Assembly: GCA_029262695.1 (NCBI GenBank)
Contig: JAJCYV010000022.1
Span: 190,886 to 254,885 of the forward strand
From: Chloroflexota bacterium
GTDB taxonomy: Bacteria > Chloroflexota > Dehalococcoidia > SM23-28-2 > RBG-16-64-32
DNA length: 64,000 bases
Reading direction: 5' to 3'
Part shown: positions 46,355 through 64,000 of the stretch, piece by piece
Numbering within the stretch: the first letter of the stretch is position 1
Layout: every line of letters starts with the position of its first letter
Notes under the pieces: generated by a model
What the model was told of the DNA's origin: nothing
Database searches by the model: none
The model's input: only the letters and a program-made list of their open reading frames with translations
Position numbers and translations under genes: made by a program

Positions 46355-46447
46355 TCGCTGGACAAAGCGCTCGGCCGCTCGCTAAGATGGATACACCGCC
46401 CCTTAGCCAGGTCTGCTGGCGCTCGGGCGGTGGAAGAAGGAGGAGCA

Positions 46448-47251: not shown

Positions 47252-47504
47252 GCACCGACCGATCGCGAATTCAGCCGGCGGCTGGCGAAAGTCAGCCGCC
47301 GGTTTGCGTTCCGGCCCAACTTCGGCAACGAGACGCACGCGCAGCGATCACTCAAGACGCTGGCTGGTCACCCGTCAGGAAGGACACCCACCAAGGCACC
47401 TTGCCACCCAGCACGAACTCGAAGTCTGCGCTCGGTGTGCTATTCTATTGCGCGGATTCGCTCTGGATAAGCAATCGCTTAGTTAGCCACTGAAGGAGGC
47501 CCAA

Positions 47505-47843: not shown

Positions 47844-47883
47844 ACACCGACCGATCGCGAATTCAGCCGGCGGCTGGCGAAAG

Positions 47884-49365
47884 TCAGCCGCCGGTCTGCG
47901 TTCCGGCGAAGCTGCCCAGCGGCATGGGAACATCGGCGCCCAGCACAACGACGACCCCCGCGCTGGTGTCCAGGAAGTCCGCCGCCCTGGCGTCTGATCC
48001 GCTGATCACGCTCCCGTCCGGCAGACCCAGCCACTCCGCCACCTTGCCCGCCGTGTGGTCCGCGTCATCGTTGACGTCGATCACGATCGTCGTGTCGTAC
48101 AGGTTGCCGTCGGCGTACTCGTCGATGAGGATCTGCTCCGAGCTGATGCCTTTGCCACGCAGAACGCCCGCGAAGTCTCCGGCCAGGTCCGGCACCACCG
48201 TGCCGTTGAGCACCTCCACCCGCGCGTACTCCTGGGACAGGATGCTGTCGCTGAACACCTGCGCCTTCAGCTCTTCGAACTTCACCGGGTCCCAGGAGAG
48301 GACGGCCGCCGGCCCACAGTTACAGGGGTAGGTGGCGCCGGCCGCGGAGACAGTCCGCAGGTTGTCCAGGCCAACCTGCGTGCCCAGGAGCGCCAGGCCG
48401 GGCACCTTGATCGCCGGTATGTCCGTGCTGACCGATTGCGTGTACTGGTTGTAAAGGCTCTTGGCCTTGCCGACGTCGAACAGGTTGAGGCTCAGCGCCT
48501 TTTGTGCCACTGCCTGCATCACGTCTTGCTGCCGCTCGATGCGCTTGAAGTCATCGTCGCTCTTGCGGATGCGAGCGTAGGCGAGCGCGCGCTGGCCATC
48601 CATGTGCTCAGGGCCCGGCACGAACTCCACCGGGTAGACGTTGCTGCAGAACGAGCATTCGGCGTAGGCGGGATCGTAGGCGTACCTCTTGACGTTCACG
48701 TCGATGCCACCAAGCTCGTCGATGATCTCGATGAAGCTCGCCCAGTTCATCACCACGTAGTAGTCGATCGGAATCCCGAAGTTGAGATCGATCGTGTCCA
48801 TCGCCAGCTGCGCACCGCCGCCGGGATAGCTGCTCAGCGTCGTGTACTCGCCCATCTCGTAGACCACGTTGATGCGGTTCCTGATGAAGACACCGCCGTC
48901 GCCGTCGGGGATATCGACGAGCGTGTCGCGCGGAATGGAGAAGGCGCCGGCCGTCTTGGCGAAAGGGTCGATGGTGAAGACCACAACGCTGTCCGTGCGA
49001 TAGGGCTCGTCCGAAGCATCGTCGAGGCGCTGGTCGAGGCCGAGCAGCAGGATGTTTATGCGCTCGTCGATCGTCTCCGCGCTGTCCTTGTCGTTGCCGC
49101 CTTCGACGAAGGGCAGCGCCTGGACAACGGGAATTCGCAGCTCGTTACCGGGCAAGAGGTCGTCGTCAATCTGCGTCGCCATCGCCGCGAAAGCGTAGAG
49201 CGAAAGCAGCGAGAAGGCGAAGATGCCGACGATGAGTGGGACGTTGAAGTGGCCGCGGTACCGCTGATCTCCAGCGTTGTTGGTGTCTTCCGGGGACGGG
49301 TCCTTGGTCAAGCAGCTCTCCCGGGCCTCAGGCCTCGTTATTGGGGCGGACGCTCGCGTGAGCAC
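47884..49365 (-). CDS. LCP (LytR-CpsA-Psr) family protein with LytR_C domain
   Basis: NILLLGLD, RTDS, SIPRD, YARIR, DF.RI.RQQ, VEVLNGT. Confidence 0.92.
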   Translation of the reverse strand: MLTRASAPITRPEARESCLTKDPSPEDTNNAGDQRYRGHFNVPLIVGIFAFSLLSLYAFAAMATQIDDDLLPGNELRIPVVQALPFVEGGNDKDSAETIDERINILLLGLDQRLDDASDEPYRTDSVVVFTIDPFAKTAGAFSIPRDTLVDIPDGDGGVFIRNRINVVYEMGEYTTLSSYPGGGAQLAMDTIDLNFGIPIDYYVVMNWASFIEIIDELGGIDVNVKRYAYDPAYAECSFCSNVYPVEFVPGPEHMDGQRALAYARIRKSDDDFKRIERQQDVMQAVAQKALSLNLFDVGKAKSLYNQYTQSVSTDIPAIKVPGLALLGTQVGLDNLRTVSAAGATYPCNCGPAAVLSWDPVKFEELKAQVFSDSILSQEYARVEVLNGTVVPDLAGDFAGVLRGKGISSEQILIDEYADGNLYDTTIVIDVNDDADHTAGKVAEWLGLPDGSVISGSDARAADFLDTSAGVVVVLGADVPMPLGSFAGTQTGG

Positions 49366-49623
49366 CCACGATCGTATGCGGCGACGCGAGGCGCAGGCCG
49401 GCCGGACGTCGGTTCATCTACGCTTAACAACGCGCTCGATCGGCCAAAAGTTCCTCAGCTCAGAGTGTCGGCGCCAATTCTCTGGCATGCTCGTGGCCGA
49501 TTTGACCCGCCACTTTTGGCTAGCGTAGCATCGGGCTCAAACGCGAGCAACGAGCGCACCCGCGCGCTTTCGGTCCCGCCTGAACTCCATCCACAGCGCT
49601 CCTTCGAGCCGTATCACTGCCCG

Positions 49624-51885: not shown

Positions 51886-51931
51886 CGCCTCGCTAGACCG
51901 GCGCGCAGCGCGGCGATACGATGGCCGCGCC

Positions 51932-52804
51932 ATGCCTGACGCCGTTTCCGTTCGAGTCCCCGCCACCAGTGCCAACCTGGGCCCCGGCTTCGATTGCCTG
52001 GGCCTGGCGCTCGACCTGTGGGGCACGATCACCGTCCGCCGCTCCAGCGAGCGGACGGAGGACGAGCCGATGGCGGCGATGGCGTTGCTCGGCGCCCGCA
52101 GGGTCTTCGAGCGCAGCCACACCGACGCCTACCAGTGGCACGCCTCTTACGAGGGGACGCTCCCGATCGCGCGCGGCCTCGGCGCCAGCGCGGTCGCCCG
52201 CGTCGGCGGCATCGTCGCCGCGAACGTGCTGTCCGGCGAGAAGCTGAACGACGAAGAGCTACTCTCGATAGCGACAGACCTTGAGGGTCACGCGGACAAC
52301 GCCGCACCGGCCCTCTTCGGCGGCTTCCAGGTCTCGGCGGTCGAAGGCGATCGCGTCTTCCACACGTCGGCGCCGCTGCCGGACGGGCTGCAGGCCGTGC
52401 TCTTCGTCCCCGAGGTGCGGATGGCGACGAAGGACGCCCGCCGCGTCGTCCCGGACTCGCTCTCACGCGCCGACGCCGTGTTCAACATCGGCCGCTCGTC
52501 GCTGCTCGTCGCGGCGCTGGCCAGCGGACGGCTCGACTTGCTCGACGCCGCGACGCAGGACCGGTTGCACCAGCGACAACGCGCGGAGCTGATGCCGGCG
52601 ATGGTCCCGGTCTTCGAGGCCGCGCGCGGGGCCGGCGCCCACTGCGCCTACCTCTCGGGCAGCGGCTCGACGATCTGCGCGCTGGCGACGGAGAACGCCG
52701 AGGAGATCGGCGCCGCGATGAGCGAGGCCGGCAGCGCAAACGACGCGCCGGGCGAGACGATCATCACCCGCCCGTCCGCCAAGGGCGCCGAGGTGGAGGC
52801 GTGA
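51932..52804 (+). CDS. thrB: Homoserine kinase
   Basis: PATSANLGPGFD, PIARGLGASA, EGHADN, SGSGST. Confidence 0.96.
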   Translation: MPDAVSVRVPATSANLGPGFDCLGLALDLWGTITVRRSSERTEDEPMAAMALLGARRVFERSHTDAYQWHASYEGTLPIARGLGASAVARVGGIVAANVLSGEKLNDEELLSIATDLEGHADNAAPALFGGFQVSAVEGDRVFHTSAPLPDGLQAVLFVPEVRMATKDARRVVPDSLSRADAVFNIGRSSLLVAALASGRLDLLDAATQDRLHQRQRAELMPAMVPVFEAARGAGAHCAYLSGSGSTICALATENAEEIGAAMSEAGSANDAPGETIITRPSAKGAEVEA

Positions 52805-52822
52805 CACGACCATCCGCAGCAC

Positions 52823-52910
52823 GTAGCCGCAGGGCTTCAGCCCTGCCTCAATCGAGAACCCTCAGAAGGTCAGGCTTCAGCCTGACCCGCGGCCGGACTG
52901 AAGCCCGGCC
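52823..52910. repeat. REP-type palindromes (52823-52846, 52868-52887, 52891-52910)
   Basis: GTAGCCGCAGGGCTTCAGCCCTGC and related; same family as those at 22.9 kb. Confidence 0.75.
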
Positions 52911-52928
52911 TTCTGATTCGGATACGTC

Positions 52929-54149
52929 ATGGCGCTGATCGTCCAGAAGTACGGCGGCACGTCCGTCGAAGGCGCCGAGCGGATCAAGGCCGTCGCCGAC
53001 CGCATCCTCGATCGCGTCAAGGGCGGCGACCGCCTCGTCGTCGTCGTCTCGGCGATGGGCCAGACGACCGACGAGCTGATCGCGCTCGCGGCGGAGATGA
53101 CCGACGAGCCGGAGGCGCGGGAGATGGACCTCCTGCTCTCGACCGGCGAGATCGTCACCTCGACTCTGCTGGCGATGGCGCTCAAGCACTCCGGCCAGCC
53201 GGCGCTGGCACTCTCCGGGGCGCAGGCCGGCATCGGCACAGACCGGGTGTACGGCCGCGCGCGCATCCTCAAGCTGGACCCGAAACGCGTGGTCCGCGAG
53301 CTGGACGCGGGCGCCGTCGTGATCGTCGCCGGGTTCCAGGGCATAACGGAGGAGATGGAGATCGCCACGCTGGGCCGCGGCGGCTCCGACACGACAGCCG
53401 TGGCGCTGGCGGCGGCGCTCAAGGCCGAGCGCTGCGAGATCTGCACCGACGTCGACGGCGTCTACACCGCCGACCCGCGCATCTGCCCGGAGGCCAGCAA
53501 GCTTTCCGAGGTCGGCTACGAGGAGATGCTGGAGATGGCGACGTGGGGCGCGCGCGTGATGCACAACCGCGCGATCGAGCTGGCGGCGCTCTACGACGTG
53601 CCGGTCTACGTGTCGTCCAGCTTCAACGACGAGCCGGGTACACTGATTCACGGAGGCGCAACGATGGAGAAGGCGAACAAGGTGATGGGCATCGCCCACG
53701 ACGAGGACGTGGCGCGGATCACGGTGCGCGGCGTGCCCGACCGGCCCGGCATCGCGGCGCACATCTTCGAGCCGCTGGGCGAAGGCGGCGTCAGCGTCGA
53801 CACGATCGTCCAGAACGCCAGCGTCGAACGCCTCACGGACCTCACGTTCACGGTCTCGCGGCCGCAGATGGACGAGGCGATGGCGATCATCAAGCCGATC
53901 GCCGCTGAGATCGGGGCGGCAGAGGTGATGGCGGACACGCACCTGGCGAAGGTGAGCATCATCGGCGCCGGAATGACGTCGGGGCCGGGTTACGCCGGGC
54001 GCATGTTCCGCACGCTGTTCGAGTCGAAGATCAACATCGAGCTGATCACGACGAGCGAGATCCGCATCACCTGCCTGATCGACGAGAAGGACGTGCCGAC
54101 GGCAGTCAAGGCGCTGCACGCGGCGTTCGAGTTGGCGGACGCGGCGTAG
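52929..54149 (+). CDS. lysC: Aspartate kinase
   Basis: VQKYGGTSV, VVSAMG.TTD, TLGRGGSDTT, two ACT domains; internal GGAGG-ATG at 53663 (possible beta subunit start). Confidence 0.93.
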   Translation: MALIVQKYGGTSVEGAERIKAVADRILDRVKGGDRLVVVVSAMGQTTDELIALAAEMTDEPEAREMDLLLSTGEIVTSTLLAMALKHSGQPALALSGAQAGIGTDRVYGRARILKLDPKRVVRELDAGAVVIVAGFQGITEEMEIATLGRGGSDTTAVALAAALKAERCEICTDVDGVYTADPRICPEASKLSEVGYEEMLEMATWGARVMHNRAIELAALYDVPVYVSSSFNDEPGTLIHGGATMEKANKVMGIAHDEDVARITVRGVPDRPGIAAHIFEPLGEGGVSVDTIVQNASVERLTDLTFTVSRPQMDEAMAIIKPIAAEIGAAEVMADTHLAKVSIIGAGMTSGPGYAGRMFRTLFESKINIELITTSEIRITCLIDEKDVPTAVKALHAAFELADAA

Positions 54150-54243
54150 GACATCGGGCGCCTGTGCCTAATTTCACAATCTGCTACAATTGCCCCGCTG
54201 TCCGACAGATCCGTAGGAAGCCCACCCACCACGGAGGCCCCGC

Positions 54244-55254
54244 ATGACCACCGCGACCAAGCCCCTGAACGGCCCCAGACTCTGGCTCCAGGCGCTTTAC
54301 ACGATCCCCCGCGTCGACCCGGCCGAGGTCGACCCGCTCAGCCGCTGGCTGATCCTGGGCCGCGTCTCCGTCGCCGTCATGAGCCTGATCTCGGCGATCA
54401 TCGGCGGCCTGCTCGCCCTCTACGACGACGAGTTCAGCATCGGCCTCGCGGTACTGCTTGCGCTCGGCCTGACGCTGGCGCACACCGGCAGCAACCTCGT
54501 CAACGACTTCTGGGACTACCGCAACGGGATCGACACACCGGACTCGCCGCGCGCCCGCTACGGGCCGCACCCGTTCATCGGCGAAAAGGAGAACACGCGC
54601 GAGTTCCTGCTCGTCACGGCCGTCGTCCTCGCCGCCGCAACGGCGATCGGCGTCTTCCTGACGATCACCGCAGGGCTCTGGGTGCTCGCGTTCGCACTGG
54701 GCGGCGCCTTCGTGCTGATGTTCTACTCCGGCGGCCCTCTGCCGCTCAAGTACTTCGGGATGGGCGAGGCCGCCGTCTTCGTCGTCTGGGGCCCGCTGAT
54801 GATCGGCGGCTCCTACTATGTGATGGCAGAGAGCCTGCCGGCCTGGGTGCTGCTGGCGTCGGTGCCGTACGGCCTCGGCGTGACGACGGTGCTCTTCGGC
54901 AAGCACCTCGACAAGCTCGGCTTCGACAGCGACAAAGGCATCCGCACGATGCCGATCGTCCTCGGCGAGAACCTCTCACGCAAGGTCACCGTCGTGCTCA
55001 GCGCCGGGATGTACGTCTCGGCGGCGGCGCTGGCCGTGTGGCAGGAGATGTGGGCGCTCGTGCTGGTGATCGGCGCGCTGCCGCTGCTCTGGCAGCTGTA
55101 CCAGTTCTACCGCGTTCCGAAGCCTGAGGAAGCGCCGAAGGGGTATCGCGGCTGGCCGCTCTGGTTCGTCGCCATCGCCTTCATCCACAACCGCCGCTTC
55201 GGGATGCTCTTCGTCGCCGGCCTAGCGCTCCAGCTGGCGATCAACGAACTCTAG
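54244..55254 (+). CDS. UbiA/MenA-family prenyltransferase
   Basis: NDFWDY..GID, PLKYFGMGE, D..KGIRT. Confidence 0.85.
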   Translation: MTTATKPLNGPRLWLQALYTIPRVDPAEVDPLSRWLILGRVSVAVMSLISAIIGGLLALYDDEFSIGLAVLLALGLTLAHTGSNLVNDFWDYRNGIDTPDSPRARYGPHPFIGEKENTREFLLVTAVVLAAATAIGVFLTITAGLWVLAFALGGAFVLMFYSGGPLPLKYFGMGEAAVFVVWGPLMIGGSYYVMAESLPAWVLLASVPYGLGVTTVLFGKHLDKLGFDSDKGIRTMPIVLGENLSRKVTVVLSAGMYVSAAALAVWQEMWALVLVIGALPLLWQLYQFYRVPKPEEAPKGYRGWPLWFVAIAFIHNRRFGMLFVAGLALQLAINEL

Positions 55255-55288
55255 CGCGACCGGATAAGTACCGCCAGGAGGTTCCGTC

Positions 55289-56143
55289 ATGTTCGCCCAG
55301 GACGTCCGCTTCGTCACCCTTCCCCAGGGCCGCATCGCCTACCGCGACAGCGGGGACGGCGACCCCCTTCTCTTCGTCCACGGCTGGCCCGTCTCATCCC
55401 TCACCTGGCGGAAGGTGATCCCGGCCCTGGAGCCCTCCTATCGCTGCATCGCCGTCGATCTCATGGGCATCGGCGAATCCCAGAAAGATCTCGACGGCGA
55501 CTTCTCGATGCCCGCCCAGGCCCGCATGCTCGCCGCCTTCCTTGACGCCCTCGAACTGCCCTCCGCGACGCTCATCGCCCACGACTCCGGCGCCACGATC
55601 GCCCGCATCCTCGCCGCCGACCAGCCGGGACGCTTCCCCCGCTTCATCCTCTTCGACACCGAGGTCCCCGGTCACGTGATCCGGTATTTCGTCTTCCTCC
55701 AGAAGGTCTTCAGGCTGCCGGGTGCGGCGCGCCTGTTCGGAACGCTCCTGCGCTCTCGCAACTTTCTTCGCTCTCGCCGCTTCGGTTTTGGCAACGCCGC
55801 CTACGATCACTCCGCCCTGGACCTCGACGAGCTGTTCGCCACCGCCACGGAGCCCATCCTGCGCTCCCGCGATCATCTGCGAGCCTCCATCAAGTTCTTC
55901 GTGGAGTTCGACTGGCACGTGGTCGACGCAATCCCCCACGACCGCCTCACCATGCCCAAGCTCGTCCTCTGGGGCGACCACGACGCCTTCTTCCCGTACG
56001 CCAGGGGCCGCCAGCTCTTCGAGATCCTCCCGGAGCCGAAATCGTTCTCCACCATCGCCGATTGCGGCGTCTTTCCCCACGAAGAGCGCCCGGCTGAGTG
56101 GCTGGCCGCCGTCCAGCCCTTCCTGGCGGGTACGCCGGCTTAG
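55289..56143 (+). CDS. Alpha/beta hydrolase (epoxide hydrolase/dehalogenase-like)
   Basis: HGWP, AHDSG nucleophile, WGDHD. Confidence 0.88.
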   Translation: MFAQDVRFVTLPQGRIAYRDSGDGDPLLFVHGWPVSSLTWRKVIPALEPSYRCIAVDLMGIGESQKDLDGDFSMPAQARMLAAFLDALELPSATLIAHDSGATIARILAADQPGRFPRFILFDTEVPGHVIRYFVFLQKVFRLPGAARLFGTLLRSRNFLRSRRFGFGNAAYDHSALDLDELFATATEPILRSRDHLRASIKFFVEFDWHVVDAIPHDRLTMPKLVLWGDHDAFFPYARGRQLFEILPEPKSFSTIADCGVFPHEERPAEWLAAVQPFLAGTPA

Positions 56144-56303
56144 GCGTCTGTTCTGCCAGCGGCCCCTTTTCGGCGTTCGGGAAGGGTACTCATCAACATA
56201 AAGCCGCTCAGCCGGGGCGCTCTCGGCAGCTTGTCGACAGGTTATACTCGGGCGGCGCACCCGTGAGAGTGTGCCCCAGCTCTCAATAGGAAGGCCCGCC
56301 CCA

Positions 56304-56537
56304 ATGGAATACCGCCATACCTACGCACGCGAACCGCGTATCACCCTGCCGTCCCTCCTGCTCCTCGCCGTCTTCATTTCGGCCGCCGCCTTCATCGTCT
56401 CGGCGATCGCCTGGCAGCCGTGGAACGAAGGCGACGCCGCCGTCACCTTGCCGCCGACTGATAACGCGGTGATCGTAGAGCCCGCATCCAACCCCGATAG
56501 CGAACTCGACGTCCTCGTCCAGCCGCCGGCCGAGTAG
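56304..56537 (+). CDS. Small single-TM protein
   Basis: ATG after AGGAAGG; hydrophobic helix then WQPW. Confidence 0.6.
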   Translation: MEYRHTYAREPRITLPSLLLLAVFISAAAFIVSAIAWQPWNEGDAAVTLPPTDNAVIVEPASNPDSELDVLVQPPAE

Positions 56538-56581
56538 CTCCCGACTGGAAGCGAGTTCGGCCCGCCACGTACAATGACGCC

Positions 56582-56923
56582 GTGGCCGACTGCTTGTTCT
56601 GCAAGATCATCGAGGGCGAGATACCGTCCGACAGGCTCTACGACGACGACCTTGTCGTCGTGATCCTCGACATCAGCCCGCGCGCGCCGCGGCATTTCCT
56701 GGTGCTGCCGCGGGAGCACATCGGCACCGCGAAGGACGTGCGGGGCGAGCACGGGCCGCTCCTCAGCCGCATGTTCATGGCGGCGTCCAGAGTAGCGGCG
56801 GACGAAGGCATCTCCGACAGCGGCTTCCGCATCGCCTTCAACGTCGGCGACGACGCCGGGATGACAGTGGACCACCTGCACATGCACGTCCTCGGCGGCC
56901 GCCAGCTCGGCCCCGAAGGCTAG
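56582..56923 (+). CDS. HIT family nucleotide-binding protein
   Basis: DCLFCKI, HLHMHVLGGR. Confidence 0.95.
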   Translation: MADCLFCKIIEGEIPSDRLYDDDLVVVILDISPRAPRHFLVLPREHIGTAKDVRGEHGPLLSRMFMAASRVAADEGISDSGFRIAFNVGDDAGMTVDHLHMHVLGGRQLGPEG

Positions 56924-57004
56924 GGCGACCAGCGCCGCCGCACGGCCAGCCCGCAATTCGGCGAAACGCACCTCGCTCCATGCCCCTCCACCGCCAGTCT
57001 CCTG

Positions 57005-57033
57005 TTGACTGAGTAGAACGCCTGTTCTATTAT
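57005..57033 (+). promoter_or_regulatory. Promoter P1 with LexA (SOS) box in spacer
   Basis: TTGACT-17 bp-TATTAT; AGAAC-GCCT-GTTCT at 57015-57028. Confidence 0.85.
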
Positions 57034-57083
57034 GGCTCCCTGCCCGCGTCTAGTTCGGGGGATCTCGCGAGGGGGAGGATGCG

Positions 57084-57440
57084 GTGGATGGGAGGAAGGT
57101 CGTGAGCATTTCCTGGCGCGCCGCCGCGGCGGCGCTGGACGCGGGAACCGCCGTCTTCGCCGCGGTCAACGTGGCGTACTTCGTCACACGCCTCGCCGGC
57201 GACGGCCCTGAAACGCCGGCGCGGCGTGCGGCCGTCCTGGCGCTCGCCGTCATCAGCCTCGGCGCCCTTGCCGAGGCCCTCGTGCTGCTAGCGTCGCTGG
57301 CGGCGAGCGACCCGGCGCCCCTCCTCTCGTCCCCGCAGTGGACGGCCGTTCGGGTGCTGGCCTGCGCCGGCGGCGGCGGCGTCTGCGCGCTCATCCTGCG
57401 CCGCCTCTCCGACGGCCCCACAGGACCGGAAGGAGATTAA
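57084..57440 (+). CDS. Three-TM membrane hypothetical protein
   Basis: Hydrophobic ORF; start 57084 or 57102. Confidence 0.65.
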   Translation: MDGRKVVSISWRAAAAALDAGTAVFAAVNVAYFVTRLAGDGPETPARRAAVLALAVISLGALAEALVLLASLAASDPAPLLSSPQWTAVRVLACAGGGGVCALILRRLSDGPTGPEGD

Positions 57441-57441
57441 C

Positions 57442-57624
57442 GTGACCGAGGCCGGGACCCTCCACCGCGCGATCGACGCTCGACAGTGGGAGACCGCCGC
57501 CCTCTGCCTTCTCGTCGCCGTCGCCGAGGCCGCCAACCGCCTGCCTCCACAGGCGCTGGAGGAGATGCTCGAGCTGCTGGCCGCAGAGACGGCGACGCAC
57601 CGTCAGCGCCGGAAGAGGCGCTAG
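57442..57624 (+). CDS. 60-aa hypothetical protein
   Basis: AAGGAG RBS; tightly coupled to both neighbours. Confidence 0.6.
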   Translation: MTEAGTLHRAIDARQWETAALCLLVAVAEAANRLPPQALEEMLELLAAETATHRQRRKRR

Positions 57625-57941
57625 TGGCGGCGCGAAAGGCCGCCGCCCGCGTCCGCGACTTCTACGCCACCGCCCTTACCGACGCCGAACGCCTGCAGCT
57701 GACGGACGCCCGCCGCGTCGACGGCCTGGATGAGGAGATCGCGCTCTTACGGGTGCGGCTGCGCTCGGCTCTCGAACAGCGGCCGCAGGACTTCGATCTC
57801 TTGCGCGATGGCATAGCGCTGCTCGTGCGCGCCGTCGCCACGCAGTACCGCCTCTCCCCAAAGGCCCGCAAGGACCTGGCGGACCGGATGGCGGCCGTCC
57901 TCAACAGCGTCGGCGACCAGATCCTGCCGGCGGACAGGTAG
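57624..57941 (+). CDS. Helical protein, possible small-terminase-like
   Basis: GTG overlaps upstream stop; FY...GLDEEIALLRVRL; lies upstream of the large terminase. Confidence 0.6.
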   Translation: MAARKAAARVRDFYATALTDAERLQLTDARRVDGLDEEIALLRVRLRSALEQRPQDFDLLRDGIALLVRAVATQYRLSPKARKDLADRMAAVLNSVGDQILPADR

Positions 57942-58055
57942 GAGACACGTGACAAGAGACAGGAGACAAGGGGGCGTACATCGTGCCACGCGATCCCTGT
58001 TCCCTGCTCCGCGTCCCTTTTTCGAACAAACGTCCTGTTCTTAACCATAAGCATA

Positions 58056-58084
58056 TTGACATGCTAGAACGCCCGTTCTATCCT
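58056..58084 (+). promoter_or_regulatory. Promoter P2 with LexA box in spacer, plus two flanking degenerate boxes
   Basis: TTGACA-17 bp-TATCCT; TAGAAC-GCCC-GTTCTA at 58065-58080; GAACAAACGTCC at 58024; GCACAGATGTTC at 58090. Confidence 0.85.
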
Positions 58085-58095
58085 GCTCCGCACAG

Positions 58096-58356
58096 ATGTT
58101 CGCAATGAGCCGCCCACTCGAACGAGCCCTTCAGCGCTTCCGCACTCCTCCGGCTGACGGGGACCCCGACGAGTCCGTAGGACGGGCGGACGTTGCCGGC
58201 CGCGTCTCGACTGCCGCCTTCCGGGCAGCGATCGAGGAGCGCATGCGCAACCTGGAACGCGACATGGGCGACATCAAGAACCGGGTGAACGGCCTCATCT
58301 TCCTGGTCGCGGGGACCGTCATCACACAACTGCTCGTGAGGGTGATGGCGTGGTGA
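58096..58356 (+). CDS. Small coiled-coil + C-terminal TM protein
   Basis: IEERMRNLERDMGDIKNRV then a hydrophobic tail. Confidence 0.65.
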   Translation: MFAMSRPLERALQRFRTPPADGDPDESVGRADVAGRVSTAAFRAAIEERMRNLERDMGDIKNRVNGLIFLVAGTVITQLLVRVMAW

Positions 58357-59735
58357 CGGCCCCGCTGCCCACGCTGCGCCCCTACCAGGCCGAGGCCGCA
58401 CGCGCCATCACCGAGTCGGTGCTCAGCGGGCGCGGCCTCACCTTCAGCGTCGTCATGGCCCGCCAGGCCGGCAAGAACGAACTCTCCGCGCAGATTGAGC
58501 TGTTTCTGCTCCTGAAGCACGCCCGCCGCCGCGTCGAGGGCATCAAGTGCGCCCCGACGTTTGCGCCGCAGTGCCAGCTGAGCCTGCGCCGCCTCTGGTC
58601 GCGCATCGGCCAGGCGGGACTCGACCAGATCGCCTCTCGCGAAGAAGGCCGCGCCGTCCGCCTCGGCCGCGCCCGCGTCGCCTTCCTCTCCGCCGAGCCG
58701 GGCGCCAACGTCGTCGGTCACACGGCCGGCCTGATGCTGGAGGTAGACGAGGCACAGGACATCGACCCCGATAAGTTCGATCGCGACTTCCGCCCGATGG
58801 CCGCACCCGCCGGCGCGACGATCGTCTACTACGGCACGCCGTGGGACGAGTCGACGCTGCTGGAACGCGCCGCCCATCAGCACGTGGACCTCGAAAAGCG
58901 TGACGGCGTCCGGCGCCATTTCACAGCCGATTGGACGGCCGTCGCCCGGCACAATCCGGCCTACGGACGCTTCGTTGAGGCGGAGCGCGAGCGACTGGGC
59001 GAGGACCACCCGCTCTTCCGCACGCAGTACGCCCTGCGACCGGTGGCCGGGAGTGGCCGCCTCCTCTCCGCCACCCAGCGCGCGCAGCTGCAAGGCCGCC
59101 ACGCACGACAGCACACAGCAAGCTACGGCGACACATACGTCGCGGGACTCGACATCGGCGGTCAGGACTTCGGTTCGGGCCGCGATAACGACCGCACCGT
59201 GGTCACCATCGCCCGCGTTGTCCCGCCTGAAGCGGGCGCGACCGTCCCCGAGCCGCGGCTCGAAGTCGTCGAGCACGTGGCGGAGGCCGGCGCCCCGCAC
59301 GACGCGTTGATCGCCCGCCTCTCAGACCTCCTCGGCGAGGTCTGGCGCGTCAGTCGTGTGACCGTCGACGCGACGGGCGTCGGGGAGACGATCGCGACGT
59401 TGCTGGCGCGCCGCCTGGGCGAAGACGTCGTCCGGCCGCTGCGCTTTTCGGCGGAGGCGAAGTCGCGCCTGGGCTTCGGCCTGCTCGCGGCGGTCAACGG
59501 CGGCCGCCTCAAATGCTACGCCGCCGACGGTTCGGCGGAATACGCCGCCTTCTCTCACGAAGTCGCACTGGCGCGCGTCGCCTATCGGCCGGGCGGCCGG
59601 ATGAGCTTCCATGTCGACGCCGCCGACGGACACGACGACTATCTGGTGAGCCTGGCGCTCGCCGTAGAAGCCGGACGCGTCGGGCTGCCACAGCCGCGCG
59701 TCGCCCGGGGTCGCGCCCCGGTCCTGAGCAGGTAA
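58350..59735 (+). CDS. Phage-type terminase large subunit
   Basis: LRPYQ, Walker A ARQAGKNE, Walker B LEVDEAQD, GTPW, nuclease AGLDIGG, VDATGVG, HDDY. Confidence 0.88.
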   Translation: MVTAPLPTLRPYQAEAARAITESVLSGRGLTFSVVMARQAGKNELSAQIELFLLLKHARRRVEGIKCAPTFAPQCQLSLRRLWSRIGQAGLDQIASREEGRAVRLGRARVAFLSAEPGANVVGHTAGLMLEVDEAQDIDPDKFDRDFRPMAAPAGATIVYYGTPWDESTLLERAAHQHVDLEKRDGVRRHFTADWTAVARHNPAYGRFVEAERERLGEDHPLFRTQYALRPVAGSGRLLSATQRAQLQGRHARQHTASYGDTYVAGLDIGGQDFGSGRDNDRTVVTIARVVPPEAGATVPEPRLEVVEHVAEAGAPHDALIARLSDLLGEVWRVSRVTVDATGVGETIATLLARRLGEDVVRPLRFSAEAKSRLGFGLLAAVNGGRLKCYAADGSAEYAAFSHEVALARVAYRPGGRMSFHVDAADGHDDYLVSLALAVEAGRVGLPQPRVARGRAPVLSR

Positions 59736-59756
59736 GAGCACGTAAGGAGGAGAGCG

Positions 59757-60158
59757 ATGAGCACAGCAGTGATGACGGGAACGAAGTCGGAGCAGCTCCG
59801 GCTACCGATGTCCGGCGCGGCCAGTCCACGGGTCCGCTCCGACGCCCTGCCGGAGTTCACACGATACCGGGACAGCGGCTGCGACGTGAGCCCGAACTGC
59901 CTCGCCTGCCCGCTGCCTCGCTGCCGCTACGAGGAGCCGGGAGGCCTGCGGGCGCTCCTCAACAAGACGCGCGACGAGCAGATCGTGACGCAGCGCGCGA
60001 CCGGCGTGCCGGTGGCCGAAATTGCCACGCGCTTCGGCGTCTCCCGGCGCACCGTCTTTCGCGTCCTCGGCAACCGGGCGCGGCAGCCGATACCGATCCG
60101 CCAGAGAGATGAGGCCCCGACGAACGGCCAATCGAGAAGGGAGGCGCACTGTGCGTAA
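59757..60158 (+). CDS. Cys4 motif + HTH DNA-binding protein
   Basis: GC....CLAC....C then VAEIATRFGVSRRTVFRVL. Confidence 0.8.
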   Translation: MSTAVMTGTKSEQLRLPMSGAASPRVRSDALPEFTRYRDSGCDVSPNCLACPLPRCRYEEPGGLRALLNKTRDEQIVTQRATGVPVAEIATRFGVSRRTVFRVLGNRARQPIPIRQRDEAPTNGQSRREAHCA

Positions 60159-60243
60159 CATGCTCACGGCAACGCTCCACACCGCCGGATACCTGGCGCT
60201 CACGAGCACCGCGATCTGGATGCTCTTCCGTTTCGCGCCATAG
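60151..60243 (+). CDS. 30-aa hydrophobic peptide MRNMLTATLHTAGYLALTSTAIWMLFRFAP
   Basis: GGAGG RBS, GTG start, overlaps upstream stop. Confidence 0.45.
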   Translation: MRNMLTATLHTAGYLALTSTAIWMLFRFAP

Positions 60244-60316
60244 CCGCGGACCCCGACGGGTCCGTAGGACGAGCGGAGGTTGCCCGGGGAGGCCGGGCAG
60301 AAGGGAGGAGGAGGAA

Positions 60317-61681
60317 ATGGTAATAGCAACGACGCCGACGCGCGCCGACGTGCCGCTGCCGCAACAGCTGAGAGCGCTGGACAGCGAGCGGATGCGCGCC
60401 TATCGCGGGAACCTGGAGTTCTACGAGGGGCGCCAGTGGGCGGAGTCCCAGCGGCGACGCGAGCGCCGGCTCTCGTTCAATTACGCCCGTACGATCATCG
60501 AGAAGACCGCCTCGTACACGATGTCCGGCCTGACCTCCGTCAGCGACCCGGCAGACGGCTCGCCGGAGGCAGCGGAGGCGGCGCGGCGAGCCGAGCAGGC
60601 GTTGCGCGACGTCTACGACGCCAACGCGCTCGACCAGCTGGACTTCGACAACGAGATCGACTGCTCCGTGCTCGGCGACGCCGCCTACAAAGTGACGTGG
60701 GACGCCGCCGAAGAGCGCGTTCGCGTCTCGGCGCCCGACGTCCAGGGGCTGTACGCCTGGTGGCTCGCCGACGATCCCTCGCGGGTCTGGCGCGTCGCCT
60801 CGCGCTACACGCTGGCCGGCGATGAGTCGGCGGCGCTCTTTGACGTCCCGGCGTCTACGGCCGCCGAGCGCAGCGTGGTTGAGGTCTGGACGAACGACAC
60901 GTTCGAGCTGTGGTTCGACGGTGCCCTCGCCGAGGCGGCGGACAACCCGTACGGCTTCATCCCGTACGTTATCTACCCGAACATCCGCGAGCCGAAGAAG
61001 TTCTGGGGCGTCTCCGACCTCGTCGCCGTAAAGGAGCCGCTACGCGAGCTGAACCGCGCGCTGACGCAGCTCTCGACGATCCTCGAGATGTCGGGGAACC
61101 CGATCGCGGTGCTGGAGAACGTGACCGAAGCGCAGGACATCGCCGTCCAGCCGGGCGCGGTCTGGGAGATCCCGGAGAAGGCTCGTGCTTACCTGCTTGA
61201 CCTGCTGCAGGGCGGCGGCGCCAGCCTGCACGTCGAGTACGCCAACCTCGTCCTGCGCACGCTGCACGACCTAGCGGAGGTGCCGCGCAGCGCCTTCGGG
61301 GACAACCGCCAGGCGCTCTCTGGCGTGGCCCTCCAGCTCGAACTAGACCCGCTGCTCAAGAAGGTAGCCCGCAAGCGCCTGATCCGCGGCGCCGCCTTTC
61401 GCAGGCGCAACGAGATGGTGCTGCGGATCCTGGAGGGACAGAGCGGCGAGAGCTTCGCGCCGTACCGCAGCCGCATCGCCTGGGGGCCCGTTCTGCCGCA
61501 GGACCGCTCGCGGCTGGTCGAGGACGAGACGCGGCTCGTGGCCTCCGGCATCCACTCGCGGCGCACGGCCGCGGGCCTGCTCAACGTCGCGGACCCTGAC
61601 GGTGAGTGGGCGCGCTGGCTCAGCGAAGAGTCGGCGTCCCCTGCCGGTCCGCTGGCGGGCGAGAACGGCGGTGAGCGATGA
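60317..61681 (+). CDS. Phage portal protein (SPP1 gp6-like)
   Basis: FYEG.Q, N.ARTII, LGDA, NPYGFIPYV..PN, G.SDL, SGVAL; strong RBS. Confidence 0.85.
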   Translation: MVIATTPTRADVPLPQQLRALDSERMRAYRGNLEFYEGRQWAESQRRRERRLSFNYARTIIEKTASYTMSGLTSVSDPADGSPEAAEAARRAEQALRDVYDANALDQLDFDNEIDCSVLGDAAYKVTWDAAEERVRVSAPDVQGLYAWWLADDPSRVWRVASRYTLAGDESAALFDVPASTAAERSVVEVWTNDTFELWFDGALAEAADNPYGFIPYVIYPNIREPKKFWGVSDLVAVKEPLRELNRALTQLSTILEMSGNPIAVLENVTEAQDIAVQPGAVWEIPEKARAYLLDLLQGGGASLHVEYANLVLRTLHDLAEVPRSAFGDNRQALSGVALQLELDPLLKKVARKRLIRGAAFRRRNEMVLRILEGQSGESFAPYRSRIAWGPVLPQDRSRLVEDETRLVASGIHSRRTAAGLLNVADPDGEWARWLSEESASPAGPLAGENGGER

Positions 61682-61884
61682 CCGGCGAACCGCTGGGGCT
61701 GCCGCGGGGAAGCGTGCGCGCCGTGATGTCGGTCGCGGTCGTGCTGGTCGCCGCTGCGATCGCCGCCGTGCTGCTCACACGCGAGCCGTCGTCCGACCTG
61801 ACGAAGATGGTCGTCGGCGGCTGGGCCACGGCGCTGGGGAACGTAATCGGGTTCTACTTCGGAGCGCGCAGCACCGCTGAGTGA
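61678..61884 (+). CDS. Two-TM holin-like small protein
   Basis: PLGLPRGSVRA...VIGFYFG; ATGA coupling to portal. Confidence 0.6.
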   Translation: MTGEPLGLPRGSVRAVMSVAVVLVAAAIAAVLLTREPSSDLTKMVVGGWATALGNVIGFYFGARSTAE

Positions 61885-61886
61885 CG

Positions 61887-62423
61887 TCAGGCGCCTCCTG
61901 CGGATCCGTCGGAGCGAGCGGCCACGTGCTGTTCCCAGTAGCGGCGGAAGATGGCGAGGCCCCAGCGGTAACCCCAGGCGTCGCCGAGGCTGTTCGCCAC
62001 GTTGGCGGAGAAGATGTAGAAGAAGATCATCAGGCCGAAGAAGGCCGTGACGGACCACCACGTGACGCCGGCAAACGCCAGCGGAACCAGCGCCAGCGCG
62101 ACGCCGGTCGTCAGGCCTGCCCAGGCGATCGTGCGCACGACGGCGCCCTCGCGGCCCCGCCGGCGGCGGTGTCCCTCGATCACGTCGAGCGGCACGCTCT
62201 CGACGGTGGCGGTCTCGGCGGTGGGCGTTCCGCAGTGAGGGCAGTCGCCGTCCCCGGCCTGGCGCGGGTGATAGCAGTTGCCGCAGAAGCGGCCGGTGTT
62301 GGGAGCACGACCGGCAAGCACCTCATCCAGCCAGGCAACGAGGCGCGCGGAGACGATCTCGTCCCCCGCGCCTCCGGGCGCCTCGGAGCCGGAAGGCCGC
62401 TCGCCGGCCCGCGCCTGCGTCAC
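61887..62423 (-). CDS. Zinc-ribbon + two-TM hypothetical protein
   Basis: FCGNC...CPHCG; C-terminal TM helices. Confidence 0.7.
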   Translation of the reverse strand: MTQARAGERPSGSEAPGGAGDEIVSARLVAWLDEVLAGRAPNTGRFCGNCYHPRQAGDGDCPHCGTPTAETATVESVPLDVIEGHRRRRGREGAVVRTIAWAGLTTGVALALVPLAFAGVTWWSVTAFFGLMIFFYIFSANVANSLGDAWGYRWGLAIFRRYWEQHVAARSDGSAGGA

Positions 62424-62425
62424 GT

Positions 62426-62827
62426 CTAGTCGATGCCCATCGTGGCGACCTGATCGGCCCGGATCACGAAGAGCAGCCGCTGCTCGCCCGGCTGCAGGTT
62501 CGGATACTCGTCGAGACCCATGTACTTCTTGGCCAGCTTGTGGATGTTCTCCAGCGCACCCTCGCTCCGCACCTCGGCCACCTCGCCCTGGATCGACGCC
62601 GACTGGTACGGCACGTCCTGGTTGTAGATCGAGATCGCGACGCGGGGATCGCGACGGACGTTGCGGGGCTTGATGCGCCCTTCGGCCGTGTTCACGAGGA
62701 TACTGTCGCCCTCGATATCCACCCAGACAGCGCTGACCTGCGGCGAGCCGTCGGGCATTATCGTGGCCAGGTGGCCGAAGTTCTTCCCTTCGAAAAGGGC
62801 GCGGACGCCGGGACTAAGAGTTGCCAT
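62426..62827 (-). CDS. PPOX-class F420-dependent oxidoreductase
   Basis: LAT..PDGSPQVS.VW, K.RN.RRDPRVA. Confidence 0.92.
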   Translation of the reverse strand: MATLSPGVRALFEGKNFGHLATIMPDGSPQVSAVWVDIEGDSILVNTAEGRIKPRNVRRDPRVAISIYNQDVPYQSASIQGEVAEVRSEGALENIHKLAKKYMGLDEYPNLQPGEQRLLFVIRADQVATMGID

Positions 62828-63092
62828 CGTAACGAAGCTCCTTCTTCCAACATTTTCGGTGGTCGCCAACGCATCGTAACAGCGGCACGATCGTCATGCC
62901 CCGGTTAGGGAGCCGGGGAGATTGAGTTAATCGGGGCCGGGAACGCCCTCGGGCCGTATCGATGAGCGCCGTCCAGCGTCTGTCATTGTGCGAGGACCGG
63001 GCGCGCGTCCGGCTCGTGAGCCGAATAAAGCAGCCCGAACCGCGAGCGGCGCCCCCTCTTCGCCGCGGCGAAGGCACAAGAAGGAGCCTCCC

Positions 63093-64000
63093 ATGGCGTG
63101 GTTGACCTCACTGCTCAACAGACCGGAGACCACCGAAGATGAGCGCGCGCCCTCCGAGCAGGACACGCTCGCAGCCGAGGAAGCGGCCGCGCGGCGGCCC
63201 GCTCCCGGCAGTCCGCCGTTAGCAATCCTGTCGCCGGACATCGGAGGCATCAGTTCGTTCAGCCTGCGCTTCTTCGCCGACGCCGCGACCGCCGCAGCAG
63301 ACATCGAGCAGCTCACGCCGGAGATGCGCCGCGGCACGCACGCCTTCTGGGCGCTGCACGACGAGCCGGTGCTCCCACCCGACGGTCACCGCGAAGCGCT
63401 CGTCCTCATCCGCGCCAACCACACGTCGGACATCGTCTACGCCGTCTCGTTCGTCGACCTGGAGAGCGCGTGGTCGTTCGCCCGCTTTGAGGCCAAGCGC
63501 GGCCTCGACGTCTCACATCTGATTATCCTCTGGGCCGCCTTCGCCACAGTCCGCGAGGAGCTGGACGGCGTCAGCGTTCTGCCCGCTTCAGCGCCGGCGA
63601 CCAGGGCCCAACACGCCAGGGCGTACCCGGGCCAGAGCGCCGTAGAGCTCGCGGCCACTGAGACCGTCCGCGAGTACGAGCGTGCCGAGGAGCCGACGAT
63701 CACCGACAGCGCCGCCGCTCCTGAAGCGCCCGAAGAAGCGGGACTCGCTGAGGCCGAGACCGAACGTCGCGAGGAGGCTGCCCGAGCGAGACTCGCTGAG
63801 GCCGAGACCGGGCGCCGCGAGGAGGCGGCCCGGCGCGCCGAAGCTGACGAAGCTGCCCGCATCGCCAGGCAGGCGCAGGAAGAGCTGCGGGCAGCGCGCG
63901 CGGCTGCCGACGCCGCTCGCGCCGTCGCCGAAGCCGAGACGACACGGCGCGAGGAGGCCGAGCGCCGCCTGGAAGAGCAGCGACAGGCCGCCGAGGCCGC
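63093..64000 (+). CDS. Hypothetical protein with globular N-terminal domain and Ala/Glu/Arg coiled coil; runs off window
   Basis: AAGGAG RBS, MAWLTSLLNRP...; EAET.RREEAAR repeats; absent from the ORF track because it has no stop in the window. Confidence 0.75.
   Translation, partial: MAWLTSLLNRPETTEDERAPSEQDTLAAEEAAARRPAPGSPPLAILSPDIGGISSFSLRFFADAATAAADIEQLTPEMRRGTHAFWALHDEPVLPPDGHREALVLIRANHTSDIVYAVSFVDLESAWSFARFEAKRGLDVSHLIILWAAFATVREELDGVSVLPASAPATRAQHARAYPGQSAVELAATETVREYERAEEPTITDSAAAPEAPEEAGLAEAETERREEAARARLAEAETGRREEAARRAEADEAARIARQAQEELRAARAAADAARAVAEAETTRREEAERRLEEQRQAAEA

Follow-up and report, generated by a model that had tools for sequence, protein, structure and literature searches.

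Why would a member of the Dehalococcoidia keep phage-type packaging genes behind promoters that carry a LexA-type operator in their spacers? The question is raised by an islet of 5 kb, the only such content of the window (the whole stretch of 64,000 nucleotides analysed here), in which two operons start from promoters designated P1 and P2. We argue that the islet is probably part of a domesticated, phage-derived set of particle genes, possibly GTA-like, that is placed under direct SOS control.

Promoter P1 (57005-57033, plus strand) consists of TTGACT (57005-57010), a spacer of 17 nt and TATTAT (57028-57033), and its spacer holds the LexA-type box GAACGCCTGTTC (57016-57027), which abuts the -10 element and forms part of an extended palindrome, AGAAC-N4-GTTCT. 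Promoter P2 (58056-58084, plus strand) combines TTGACA (58056-58061) and TATCCT (58079-58084) with a spacer of the same 17 nt, and here too the box, GAACGCCCGTTC (58067-58078), abuts the -10. The GAAC-N4-GTTC palindrome is perfect in both promoters and occupies the identical register in the 3' part of the spacer. This agrees with the initial annotation, which had described two like-built promoters with equally placed boxes: both strings were found at the quoted positions, and each box ends directly 5' of the -10. The two extra one-mismatch boxes that it had ascribed to P2 were located as well, GAACAAACGTCC at 58024-58035, 43 nt 5' of the main box, and GCACAGATGTTC at 58090-58101, 23 nt 3' of the main box and covering the expected transcript start; its last base coincides with the end coordinate given by the initial annotation.

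The window contains the composite TTGAC-N6-GAAC-N4-GTTCTAT two times, where 100 shuffles give an expectation of 0.00, and P1 and P2 are the only sigma-70-like matches between 56800 and 62600 (2 against 0.1 expected). The bare 12-mer GAAC-N4-GTTC is present in three copies in the window, where 0.81 are expected and 5 of 100 shuffles reach three, and in 36 copies in the 2.53-Mb genome, where a first-order model predicts 35.4; one-mismatch boxes number 27 against 23.4 expected. Since the bare box is not enriched, the significance of the sites lies in their promoter context, in the extended palindrome and in their conservation at orthologous loci. Indeed, AGAAC-N4-GTTCT occurs only four times in the genome, at P1, at P2, at a scaffold-like gene on contig C39 and at a Y-family polymerase gene, and all four copies sit inside -35/17/-10 promoters.

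The design is retained in relatives. A perfect box lies within 450 nt 5' of TerL, the large terminase gene of the islet, in all 18 of the relatives' loci that have upstream sequence. At the P1-like sites (n=13), located 5' of orthologues of the first P1 gene, TA directly follows the box in 13 of 13 and TTGAC precedes it by 11 nt in 11 of 13; in a comparison of 26 sites, 25 have TA directly 3' of the box and 17 keep TTGAC in its fixed register. The auxiliary boxes recur at P2-like sites, the upstream one (at most one mismatch, 20-45 nt 5') in 14 of 26 and the downstream one (20-23 nt 3') in 16 of 26. Conservation of the downstream box is not driven by coding, since a stop follows the 'MF' reading in two of the loci (L017 and L020). 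In more distant Dehalococcoidia, 12 of the 18 loci examined keep the design with one-mismatch boxes.

The SOS genes of the host point to LexA as the protein that would bind these sites. The core box stands just upstream of host lexA (box at C22:356890, gene at C22:356212-356853) and recA (box at C4:218313), all 29 of the relatives' loci examined carry a perfect box ahead of lexA, and an operator-in-spacer promoter of the P1/P2 type is found at the Y-family polymerase gene. Weaker sites lie 5' of uvrA and probably also 5' of ruvB. Host lexA and recA score under the cut-off of our genome-wide PWM, which was trained on promoter-embedded sites and so favours that design. Fernandez de Henestrosa and colleagues, writing in J. 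Bacteriol. in 2002, are said to have found that a Dehalococcoides LexA binds a motif of the GAAC-N4-GTTC type. The core palindrome is also the LexA site of Gram-positive bacteria (PMC3091678). With the box at lexA and recA and the whole design at the Y-family polymerase gene, direct repression of P1 and P2 by LexA is a well-supported prediction, in line with the host wiring that the initial annotation had offered as one of its readings.

P1 precedes three genes, all read, like the other genes of the islet, from the plus strand. The first, A118 (57084-57440), encodes a hydrophobic and probably membrane-bound protein of 118 aa that has orthologues in matching position (dN/dS 0.31-0.45 against genus-mates). 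It is followed by B60 (57442-57624, 60 aa, dN/dS 0.11-0.29) and by C105 (57624-57941), whose start overlaps the B60 stop (TAGTG). Like D86 and E68 below, these three proteins match nothing above threshold in Pfam, PHROGs, NCBIfam or PADLOC. The claim that both promoters drive packaging genes directly has no visible backing for P1: its three products are without a family, and one of them, C105, travels with TerL and has a weakly supported predicted complex with it.

C105, an all-helical protein of 105 aa, is conserved beside TerL more widely than any other protein, down to 37-46% identity, with dN/dS of 0.05-0.18 against four close genus-mates. Its AlphaFold model has five helices (pLDDT 79.5); Foldseek against the PDB returned nothing at E<=0.001, and a profile search against PDB sequences gave chance-level matches only. 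The nearest named cluster in the Atlas, at 0.80, is the T5 small terminase, which serves as a lead only, and the other neighbours are unnamed Chloroflexota clusters. A predicted complex of C105 and TerL scored 0.41 against 0.00 for the best control, with runs sharing at least 95% of contacts and a partner pLDDT of at least 48; 58 of 80 solved complexes reach the mark applied to such scores, as do 2 of 110 mismatched pairs, and scores of at most 0.60 belong to only 7 of the 80 solved complexes plus both mismatches that passed, so that the prediction counts as weak support, a hint only. C105 is a candidate terminase accessory or small subunit.

The operon behind P2 opens with D86 (58096-58356), a coiled-coil protein with a C-terminal membrane helix (dN/dS 0.18-0.49); its orthologues suggest translation from the ATG at 58105, in which case there would be almost no leader. 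All its family matches are sub-threshold, and the label 'GTA head formation protein' was rejected as noise-level (15.7 bits against a cut-off of 50). TerL (58350-59735, 461 aa) is identified by PF17289 (E 2.2e-5) and phrog_2 (E 1e-9). Its ATPase and nuclease motifs are intact; Walker A, Walker B and the Asp/His residues of the nuclease are each shared by at least 95% of 54 sequences, and dN/dS is 0.13-0.20. A Cys-rich HTH protein of 133 aa (59757-60158) matches HTH_23 (E 3.7e-7) and phrog_836, 'late transcriptional activator' (E 6e-6), in a conserved position, and is a candidate regulator or DNA-recognition subunit. The portal (60317-61681, 454 aa) is SPP1 Gp6-like (PF05133 E 8.9e-22, phrog_64 E 1.7e-31) and is the genome's sole match to the PF05133 family (dN/dS 0.10-0.19). 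Last comes E68 (61678-61884, 68 aa), which is found 3' of the portal in seven loci and has only weak matches to PHROGs of unknown function; its two hydrophobic stretches could be called holin-like, a reading of the residues rather than the output of a tool. The islet also contains a direct repeat of 40 nt on the plus strand, with one copy inside D86 (58158-58197) and another, 36/40 identical, between the HTH and portal genes (60245-60284). These are its only two genomic copies, and a genus-mate (L005) has both of them.

Scaffold-like, capsid, adaptor and tail-like genes are located apart from the islet on C39, in a part that spans 5 kb. There, the scaffold-like gene sits behind a third promoter of the P1/P2 design, and in sister families the corresponding half, from scaffold-like to tail-like gene, lies directly 3' of the portal. 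In the present genome, the scaffold-like and capsid genes lie apart, with about 6 kb of genes on the opposite strand between them. The capsid matches phrog_212 (E 3.9e-72) and PF05065 (E 9e-9); a whole-genome search with PF05065 had missed it, a false negative, and it was found via the ORFs of relatives. Searches of PDB sequences yielded no match for TerL or the capsid. The adaptor is SU10-type and matches PF24175, the Atlas neighbours of the tail-like protein are named 'phage tail protein', and the scaffold-like coiled-coil gene has a Phage_scaffold match, sub-threshold, in its orthologue only. Nothing recognisable as a tail tube, tape measure, protease or endolysin turned up. In family-mates a LexA box also precedes the capsid gene, and in this genome and one other (G000 and G001) that box, about 110 nt 5' of the gene, has decayed.

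Is the set inherited with the host? Orthologues are widespread among 41 related genomes (TerL in 36, portal in 38, capsid in 31). Identity to the present genome follows RecA identity, with Spearman coefficients of 0.83 for TerL (n=27), 0.60 for the portal (n=23) and 0.69 for the capsid (n=20), although related genomes are non-independent and the correlations therefore overstate the support. Across the class, a TerL homologue (E<=1e-30) is present in 188 of 301 Dehalococcoidia genomes, including the unpublished genome G273 and some complete genomes assembled as single contigs, and mostly in single copy. HIT adjoins many of the loci, and in a genome from a different family the distance between HIT and TerL is about 3 kb. 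Most genomes have a full-length portal and capsid, both more conserved than TerL, and the capsid is 75-91% identical across the order. Occurrence, correlation with RecA and dN/dS together point to vertical inheritance under purifying selection.

The initial annotation had considered prophage late genes and a satellite-like interference module, and neither description agrees with the context of the islet. Its flanks are HIT, PNPOx, purA, cysS and cysE, with housekeeping genes on all sides. Pfam and PHROGs searches of the ORFs in and beside the islet revealed no integrase, replication or lysogeny genes; nor was an integration, replication or lysogeny module found among the ORFs examined on C39 and in three contiguous clusters (G029, G030 and G031). 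There is no tRNA in 45000-64000, the direct repeats brought up by a scan were all short and imperfect, without an obvious pair at the flanks, and the composition of the islet is slightly atypical (GC 0.70 against 0.66; tetranucleotide distance at the 94th percentile), which is not decisive. We therefore regard as quite unlikely an ordinary, perhaps defective, prophage of a Dehalococcoidia temperate lineage that integrates at the same site and takes host LexA as its repressor. Such a prophage would be in keeping with genes typical of phage heads, with the multiple TerL copies of some genomes (four each in G060 and G139), with prophage-like loci that carry related TerL, portal and capsid genes (L054) and with the precedent of phages that use LexA directly, for example GIL01 (PMC4551915). 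It is at odds with the lack of contiguous lysogeny, replication, head, tail and lysis modules, repressor and lysis-enzyme genes being found neither here nor in the three contiguous versions, and with identities that track RecA. Moreover, the nearest catalogued phages are only 31.5% (TerL) and 40% (capsid) identical, and dN/dS of 0.1-0.2 over order-level divergence misfits a dead prophage. A SaPI/PICI-type satellite or interference module with a LexA-controlled packaging operon has a real counterpart in SaPI operon I, whose terS and capsid-remodelling genes are LexA-regulated (PMC3152322), and the islet is likewise small and contains packaging genes. Even so, this origin is extremely improbable, and gene content largely refutes it: no integrase, master repressor or own replicon (primase/rep plus ori) was found, nor a tRNA, and the set has its own TerL, portal, capsid and adaptor instead of helper-redirecting genes. 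Nor is its spread patchy and horizontal, as it occurs in 23 of the order's 26 genera, descends vertically, is often present in one copy across the class and is distributed according to host kinship; PADLOC gave no significant matches. It is also very unlikely that the palindromes are operators of a regulator encoded by the element itself, such as the HTH protein with its match to a late activator. The form of the boxes might suggest this, (T)AGAAC-N4-GTTCTA at the element against CGAAC-N4-GTTCG at lexA, but the identical extended form and design recur at the Y-family polymerase gene 68 kb away, a classic SOS gene with no relation to the element, the lexA boxes of one sister family read AGAAC (L115-L119), and the core is the Gram-positive LexA site introduced above.

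The gene set is being lost from the genus and is eroding in some lineages, and the way in which it erodes bears on a further possibility. In G006, assembled as one contig, TerL is kept while the portal is reduced to residues 2-119 and the capsid has no match; G003 retains remnants and a deletion-fusion of A118 and C105; and nothing is left of the set in G004. Elsewhere in the class, solo C105+TerL pairs stand among unrelated genes without portal or capsid (L041-L044 and L088), which hints at a role independent of the particle. TerL, together with C105, might then have been co-opted for a capsid-free task in the SOS response, for instance cutting or moving chromosomal or invading DNA as an ATP-driven nuclease or translocase induced by damage, with portal and capsid as leftovers. 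The conserved catalytic motifs would suit such an enzyme, as would the intact TerL and both LexA promoters retained in G006 and G003, and the loss of the capsid promoter's box in the present genome, which keeps those of P1 and P2. We nonetheless consider this role unlikely: portal and capsid are mostly full length and better conserved, with a portal dN/dS of about 0.1, the losses in G003 and G006 may be merely recent, and known defence families gave no significant matches.

The reading that we prefer thus remains a domesticated particle gene set under LexA. A LexA dimer on GAAC-N4-GTTC would fill the spacer and reach the -10, and for that reason RNA polymerase should be shut out; at P2, the two weaker flanking boxes, about 43 nt 5' and 23 nt 3' of the main one, probably give cooperative binding. 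Upon DNA damage, RecA would trigger self-cleavage of LexA and both promoters would open, P1 for A118-B60-C105 and P2 for D86-TerL-HTH-portal-E68. The islet would be one half of an ancient head-and-packaging set, fixed in the Dehalococcoidia chromosome, with its other half on C39, and the set would have been passed on vertically, under purifying selection in most lineages. Its most likely use would be to make small phage-like particles upon damage and to load them with host DNA in GTA fashion. This use is the least certain step, and the decayed box of the capsid promoter in G000 and G001 makes co-ordinated particle synthesis doubtful in this particular genome. RNA data give weak evidence. In one metatranscriptome (X19), parts of A118, B60/C105, TerL, HTH and portal are covered by 17 contigs that are 90-99% alike; starts, strand and induction cannot be read from them, carried-over DNA is possible and the gaps between them are meaningless. 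An RNA-library contig of a relative spans P1 itself (56990-57192), which counts against the preferred reading, since a transcript starting at P1 would not do so.

It is possible, though on balance we would not expect it, that the set represents a class-wide GTA of the Dehalococcoidia, perhaps of the wider Chloroflexota, which arose independently, is expressed from direct LexA promoters and packages the cell's own DNA into small short-tailed particles during the SOS response. In a bolder variant, the C105-TerL pair itself would be an SOS-induced DNA-processing machine that outlives the particle. If the GTA-like reading is true, a phage-derived particle kit has persisted through divergence at class level in an abundant and poorly cultured class, that of the subsurface, marine and dechlorinating Chloroflexota, and has come under a DNA-damage switch. 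This would add a GTA-like system of separate evolutionary origin, the first whose own promoters contain LexA operators, giving a built-in link from SOS to gene exchange or DNA rescue and a concrete route of gene flow, dehalogenase islands included. It would also make the purpose of GTAs, repair or exchange, testable where the trigger is DNA damage. For annotators, it would mean that calling a prophage from TerL, portal or capsid in such genomes is probably wrong, and promoters of the P1/P2 type would offer compact, well-defined SOS promoters for Chloroflexota genetics.

How does this arrangement compare with known systems? The titles and abstracts among the matches listed in our literature searches described no GTA in Chloroflexota or Dehalococcoidia, and contained nothing on point for LexA-linked terminase, portal or capsid genes or for terminase prophages in Dehalococcoides or Chloroflexota. 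With the SOS regulons of Gram-positive bacteria, whose box in Bacillus subtilis is CGAAC-N4-GTTCG, the present system shares the core palindrome (PMC3091678), a box at its own lexA and the members recA, uvrA and a translesion polymerase; unlike them, three of its four strongest operator-promoters serve phage-derived structural or packaging genes. In the Bacillus tectivirus GIL01, host LexA binds SOS boxes in phage promoters (PMC4551915). GIL01 replicates as a temperate phage whose lysogenic switch is held by LexA together with gp7, whereas here there are no switch, replication or lysogeny genes and the boxes belong to promoters of structural genes. SaPI operon I likewise has packaging functions under a host LexA box that controls the operon directly (PMC3152322, in a passage citing Ubeda et al., 2007). 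SaPIs, however, are mobile, with integrase, Stl repressor and replicon, and encode terS and capsid-size factors while lacking TerL, portal and capsid, so that the present set has the opposite content and, by the evidence here, is not mobile. A further likeness is to RcGTA of Rhodobacter capsulatus and the Caulobacter GTA, which also consist of a phage-derived head, packaging and connector set, about 10-14 kb long and free of genes for integration or replication. Like the set described here, GTAs have a fixed chromosomal place, descend vertically within a large clade, are maintained by purifying selection and lost in some lineages, are sometimes split over several loci and are controlled by host regulators. 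For the present set, particles and random DNA packaging are predictions. It differs from RcGTA in its phylum, in its SU10-type adaptor and in having no recognised tail tube, tape measure or prohead protease. Production of RcGTA depends on LexA indirectly, via CckA (PMC9638019); in the Dehalococcoidia set, by contrast, control appears to be direct, through operators inside two to four promoters of the cluster.

Two promoters precede the packaging genes of the window, which spans C22:190886-254885, and each has a LexA-type box (GAAC-N4-GTTC) in its spacer. P1 (TTGACT-17-TATTAT, 57005-57033) holds GAACGCCTGTTC at 57016-57027 and P2 (TTGACA-17-TATCCT, 58056-58084) holds GAACGCCCGTTC at 58067-58078; in both, the box fills the last 12 spacer bases and the -10 element follows directly. 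The initial annotation had quoted both promoter strings, the identical box position in the two 17-nt spacers and two one-mismatch boxes at P2, and all were recovered, the latter at 58024-58035 and 58090-58101. Measured between centres, the two extra P2 boxes lie 43 and 23 nt from the main one, about four and two turns of the helix. P1 and P2 are the sole promoter-like hits in 56800-62600 (0.1 expected), and the composite promoter-box pattern occurs twice in the window versus 0.00 expected. By contrast, the bare 12-mer is found 36 times in the genome (2.53 Mb, 44 contigs, 66% G+C, assembly 90% complete) versus 35.4 expected, and boxes with at most one mismatch 27 times in the window versus 23.4. 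Since the bare 12-mer is near its chance count, the case rests on context and conservation.

Comparison of relatives' loci indicates that the operator-in-spacer design is conserved. In 18 of 19 loci from other genomes, a perfect box is found no more than 450 nt ahead of TerL; the nineteenth has just 52 nt of upstream sequence. Among 26 P2-like sites, the window's own included, TA directly follows the box in 25, and TTGAC stands exactly 11 nt ahead of it in 17 and somewhere in the expected -35 window in 23. In 16 of the 26, a further box with no more than one mismatch is placed 20-23 nt downstream; in 14, one is placed 20-45 nt upstream. The downstream P2 box overlaps the first ATG of D86, the first P2 gene, and is not conserved for coding, because two D86 orthologues have a stop after 'MF' and the protein alignment starts only from the next ATG, at window position 58105. 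P1-like sites before 13 orthologues of A118, a P1 gene, have TTGAC in register in 11 and TA after the box in all 13. Among 44 loci taken from named MAG records, a perfect box stands no more than 2.5 kb upstream in 20, and for 4 there is no upstream sequence. Re-examination of 18 loci revealed a perfect box at one (L056); the other 17 have none upstream of TerL, 12 of them showing the P1/P2-type design with a one-mismatch box and 5 nothing convincing. Boxes also lie ahead of TerL in three Anaerolineae loci.

P1 and P2 share their box with the host's lexA and recA; with a polymerase gene they share the extended promoter design. lexA (C22:356224-356853, minus strand) is closely preceded by CGAACCTTTGTTCG and by a second box, which is imperfect, and recA (C4:217282-218250, minus strand) has GGAACATGCGTTCG upstream. 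LexA is present in 41/41 related genomes, and a perfect box lies at most ~140 nt upstream of lexA at all 29 relatives' loci fetched. Dehalococcoides LexA reportedly binds a GAAC-N4-GTTC-type motif, according to a 2002 paper. Genome-wide there are four copies of the extended palindrome AGAAC-N4-GTTCT: at P1, at P2, at C39:18636, within TTGCAG-17-TATCGT preceding a 178-aa coiled-coil ORF, and at C22:179585, within TTGACA-17-TATATT on minus-strand reading, with TAGAACACTAGTTCTA, preceding a 390-aa impB/mucB/samB (Y-family polymerase) gene. The C22:179585 promoter, built identically to P1/P2, is 11.3 kb upstream of where the window begins, and the polymerase gene has a divergent TetR-like neighbour. 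The B. subtilis LexA site, CGAAC-N4-GTTCG (PMC3091678), has the same core as the window boxes. A position matrix trained on 35 promoter-embedded sites from other genomes picked candidate LexA sites before uvrA (C43:38786), probably ruvB (C39:32928) and rplI-dnaB (C1:11616), and a double box between methylthiotransferase-like and glycerate-kinase-like genes (C42:18207-18249); these are leads only, because the matrix is biased toward the P1/P2-type design. With the box upstream of host lexA and recA and its design conserved, the host wiring offered in the initial annotation is well supported, and LexA very probably controls P1 and P2 directly. LexA would occlude RNA polymerase at both promoters, the three P2 boxes perhaps acting together, and DNA damage would derepress them.

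The prophage-late-gene or satellite setting put forward with that claim is not supported. The P1 unit comprises the hydrophobic A118, B60 and C105, whose start overlaps the B60 stop, while the P2 unit comprises D86 (coiled-coil and C-terminal membrane helix), TerL (PF17289, phrog_2), a Cys-rich HTH protein, the portal (PF05133, E 8.9e-22; phrog_64, E 1.7e-31) and, last, E68 (two hydrophobic stretches). Upstream lie UbiA, hydrolase and HIT genes, and downstream a zinc-ribbon membrane protein and PNPOx (both minus strand), a 489-aa ORF, Rdx, CopD, purA, cysS and cysE. Given these housekeeping flanks, no tRNA in 45000-64000 and no integrase in the islet or flanking genes, these genes form a 5-kb islet rather than a prophage. 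The 489-aa ORF (window 62988-64000, to C22:255342, plus strand, between PNPOx and Rdx) lies outside the conserved set and has no Pfam or PHROG family match. A 40-nt direct repeat (58158-58197, inside D86, and 60245-60284, between the HTH and portal genes; 36/40 identical) holds a small hairpin, GTCC-GTA-GGAC; its only two copies in the genome are in the islet, both recur in the genus-mate locus L005, and a pac-like function or a role in binding a regulator is possible.

The second half of the set lies on contig C39, which was matched when ORFs of at least 80 aa after the portal in 10 of the 44 loci (distant, prophage-like) were compared with the whole genome. Here a scaffold-like gene (178 aa) stands behind the LexA-type promoter at C39:18636, and the capsid gene lies at C39:25253-26158 (phrog_212, E 3.9e-72; PF05065, E 9e-9 when scanned directly, having been missed by the whole-genome PF05065 search). 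Between them, ~6 kb of minus-strand genes (C39:19297-25160; L071 1298-7161) encode a 354-aa ORF and a 1582-aa protein with BACON, Ig-like, PPC and thrombospondin-type repeats; this insert has lower G+C (0.62) and a tetranucleotide distance at the 98th percentile of genome windows. After the capsid come a p70-like small gene, an SU10-type adaptor (PF24175), a tail-like protein of ~650 aa, and then host hydrolase and amidase genes. In three sister-family genomes (G029, G030 and G031) the whole set lies in one stretch. (A118-B60-C105-D86-)TerL-HTH-portal comes first, followed by two unrelated genes, which in G029 and G031 both lie on the opposite strand, and then by the scaffold-like and capsid genes, 1-3 small to medium-sized ORFs, the adaptor, the tail-like gene and a gene of 70 aa; these three sets yielded neither an integrase nor a replication gene. 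In G031 and G030, the first block and the scaffold-like gene each have a LexA box ahead of them; in G029, the only perfect box found stands ahead of the first block. Family-mates carry one more box, ~110 nt ahead of the capsid gene: it is perfect in G019, G010 and G015 and has one mismatch in G022 and G021. In our genome and in G001 it has decayed. In the family-mate G012 the portal gene is apparently split into halves ~31 kb apart on one contig (C17:20498-21178 and C17:52497-53165).

Among 41 genomes (own, genus, family and order), TerL was found in 36, the portal in 38 and the capsid in 31, misses that do not show absence because many of these MAGs are incomplete. TerL identity to our genome falls from 77-91% (genus) to 66-70% (family) and 61-69% (order), and that of RecA from 88-96% to 74-83% and 72-80%. 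With partial or broken matches excluded, identity correlates with that of RecA at Spearman values of 0.83 for TerL (n=27), 0.60 for the portal (n=23) and 0.69 for the capsid (n=20), kin not being independent. Gene order is conserved, HIT adjoins in many loci, and it lies ~3 kb from TerL in a genome of another family. The genes are intact and under constraint: Nei-Gojobori dN/dS against 5 genus-mates of the 19 loci is 0.13-0.20 for TerL, 0.10-0.19 for the portal, 0.05-0.18 for C105 (plus 0.37 from a 26-codon remnant), 0.11-0.29 for B60, 0.31-0.45 for A118, 0.18-0.49 for D86 and 0.25-0.47 for HTH. At least 95% conserved across 54 TerL sequences are Walker A R38, Q39, G41, K42 and N43, Walker B E131, D133, E134 and Q136, the pair G162-T163, and nuclease residues D268, D340 and H428-D429-D430. 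In the class sample, a TerL homologue (E<=1e-30) occurs in 188/301 genomes (187/300 without the unpublished G273) and 146/223 high-quality ones; it is missing from some families (0/17 and 0/7 genomes). Carriers mostly have one copy and a few up to four, as in G060 and G139. Catalogued phages are distant (TerL <=31.5%, capsid <=40.3% identity). This vertical inheritance likewise argues against a prophage or satellite, and a domesticated, vertically inherited phage-derived set is the probable reading.

The set is dispensable. G004 has none of TerL, portal and capsid; G037 retains solely a 49-aa portal remnant; G006, a genus-mate on one contig, keeps TerL and both promoters with portal residues 2-119 only and no capsid match; and G003 has an intact TerL, portal and capsid remnants, and a deletion (L009 3215-3481) fusing the A118 N-terminal part to the C-terminal 28 residues of C105. 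Stops in G020 are probably assembly errors, because they also affect its recA. TerL and C105 may instead have an SOS role that does not depend on particles, and this is the main rival to particle production; solo pairs of TerL and a C105-like gene stand among unrelated genes, with neither portal nor capsid, in other Dehalococcoidia (L041-L044, L088). For a particle kit that lacks replication genes and is passed on vertically, a GTA-like outcome is the most economical explanation: its products would build capsids and package DNA, and the small membrane proteins A118, D86 and E68 might aid release. We regard such GTA-like particle production as plausible, if tentative, and as doubtful in our genome itself, because there the set is split and the capsid promoter box is lost.

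We found no description of such a LexA-wired set in open-access papers or bioRxiv. SaPI operon I resembles it in LexA control alone (PMC3152322). With GTAs the set shares those genomic hallmarks that are testable from sequence, and it may work like one. Its phylum, its gene content and the LexA operators in its own promoters set it apart from the GTAs described so far; in RcGTA, LexA is needed only indirectly (PMC9638019).
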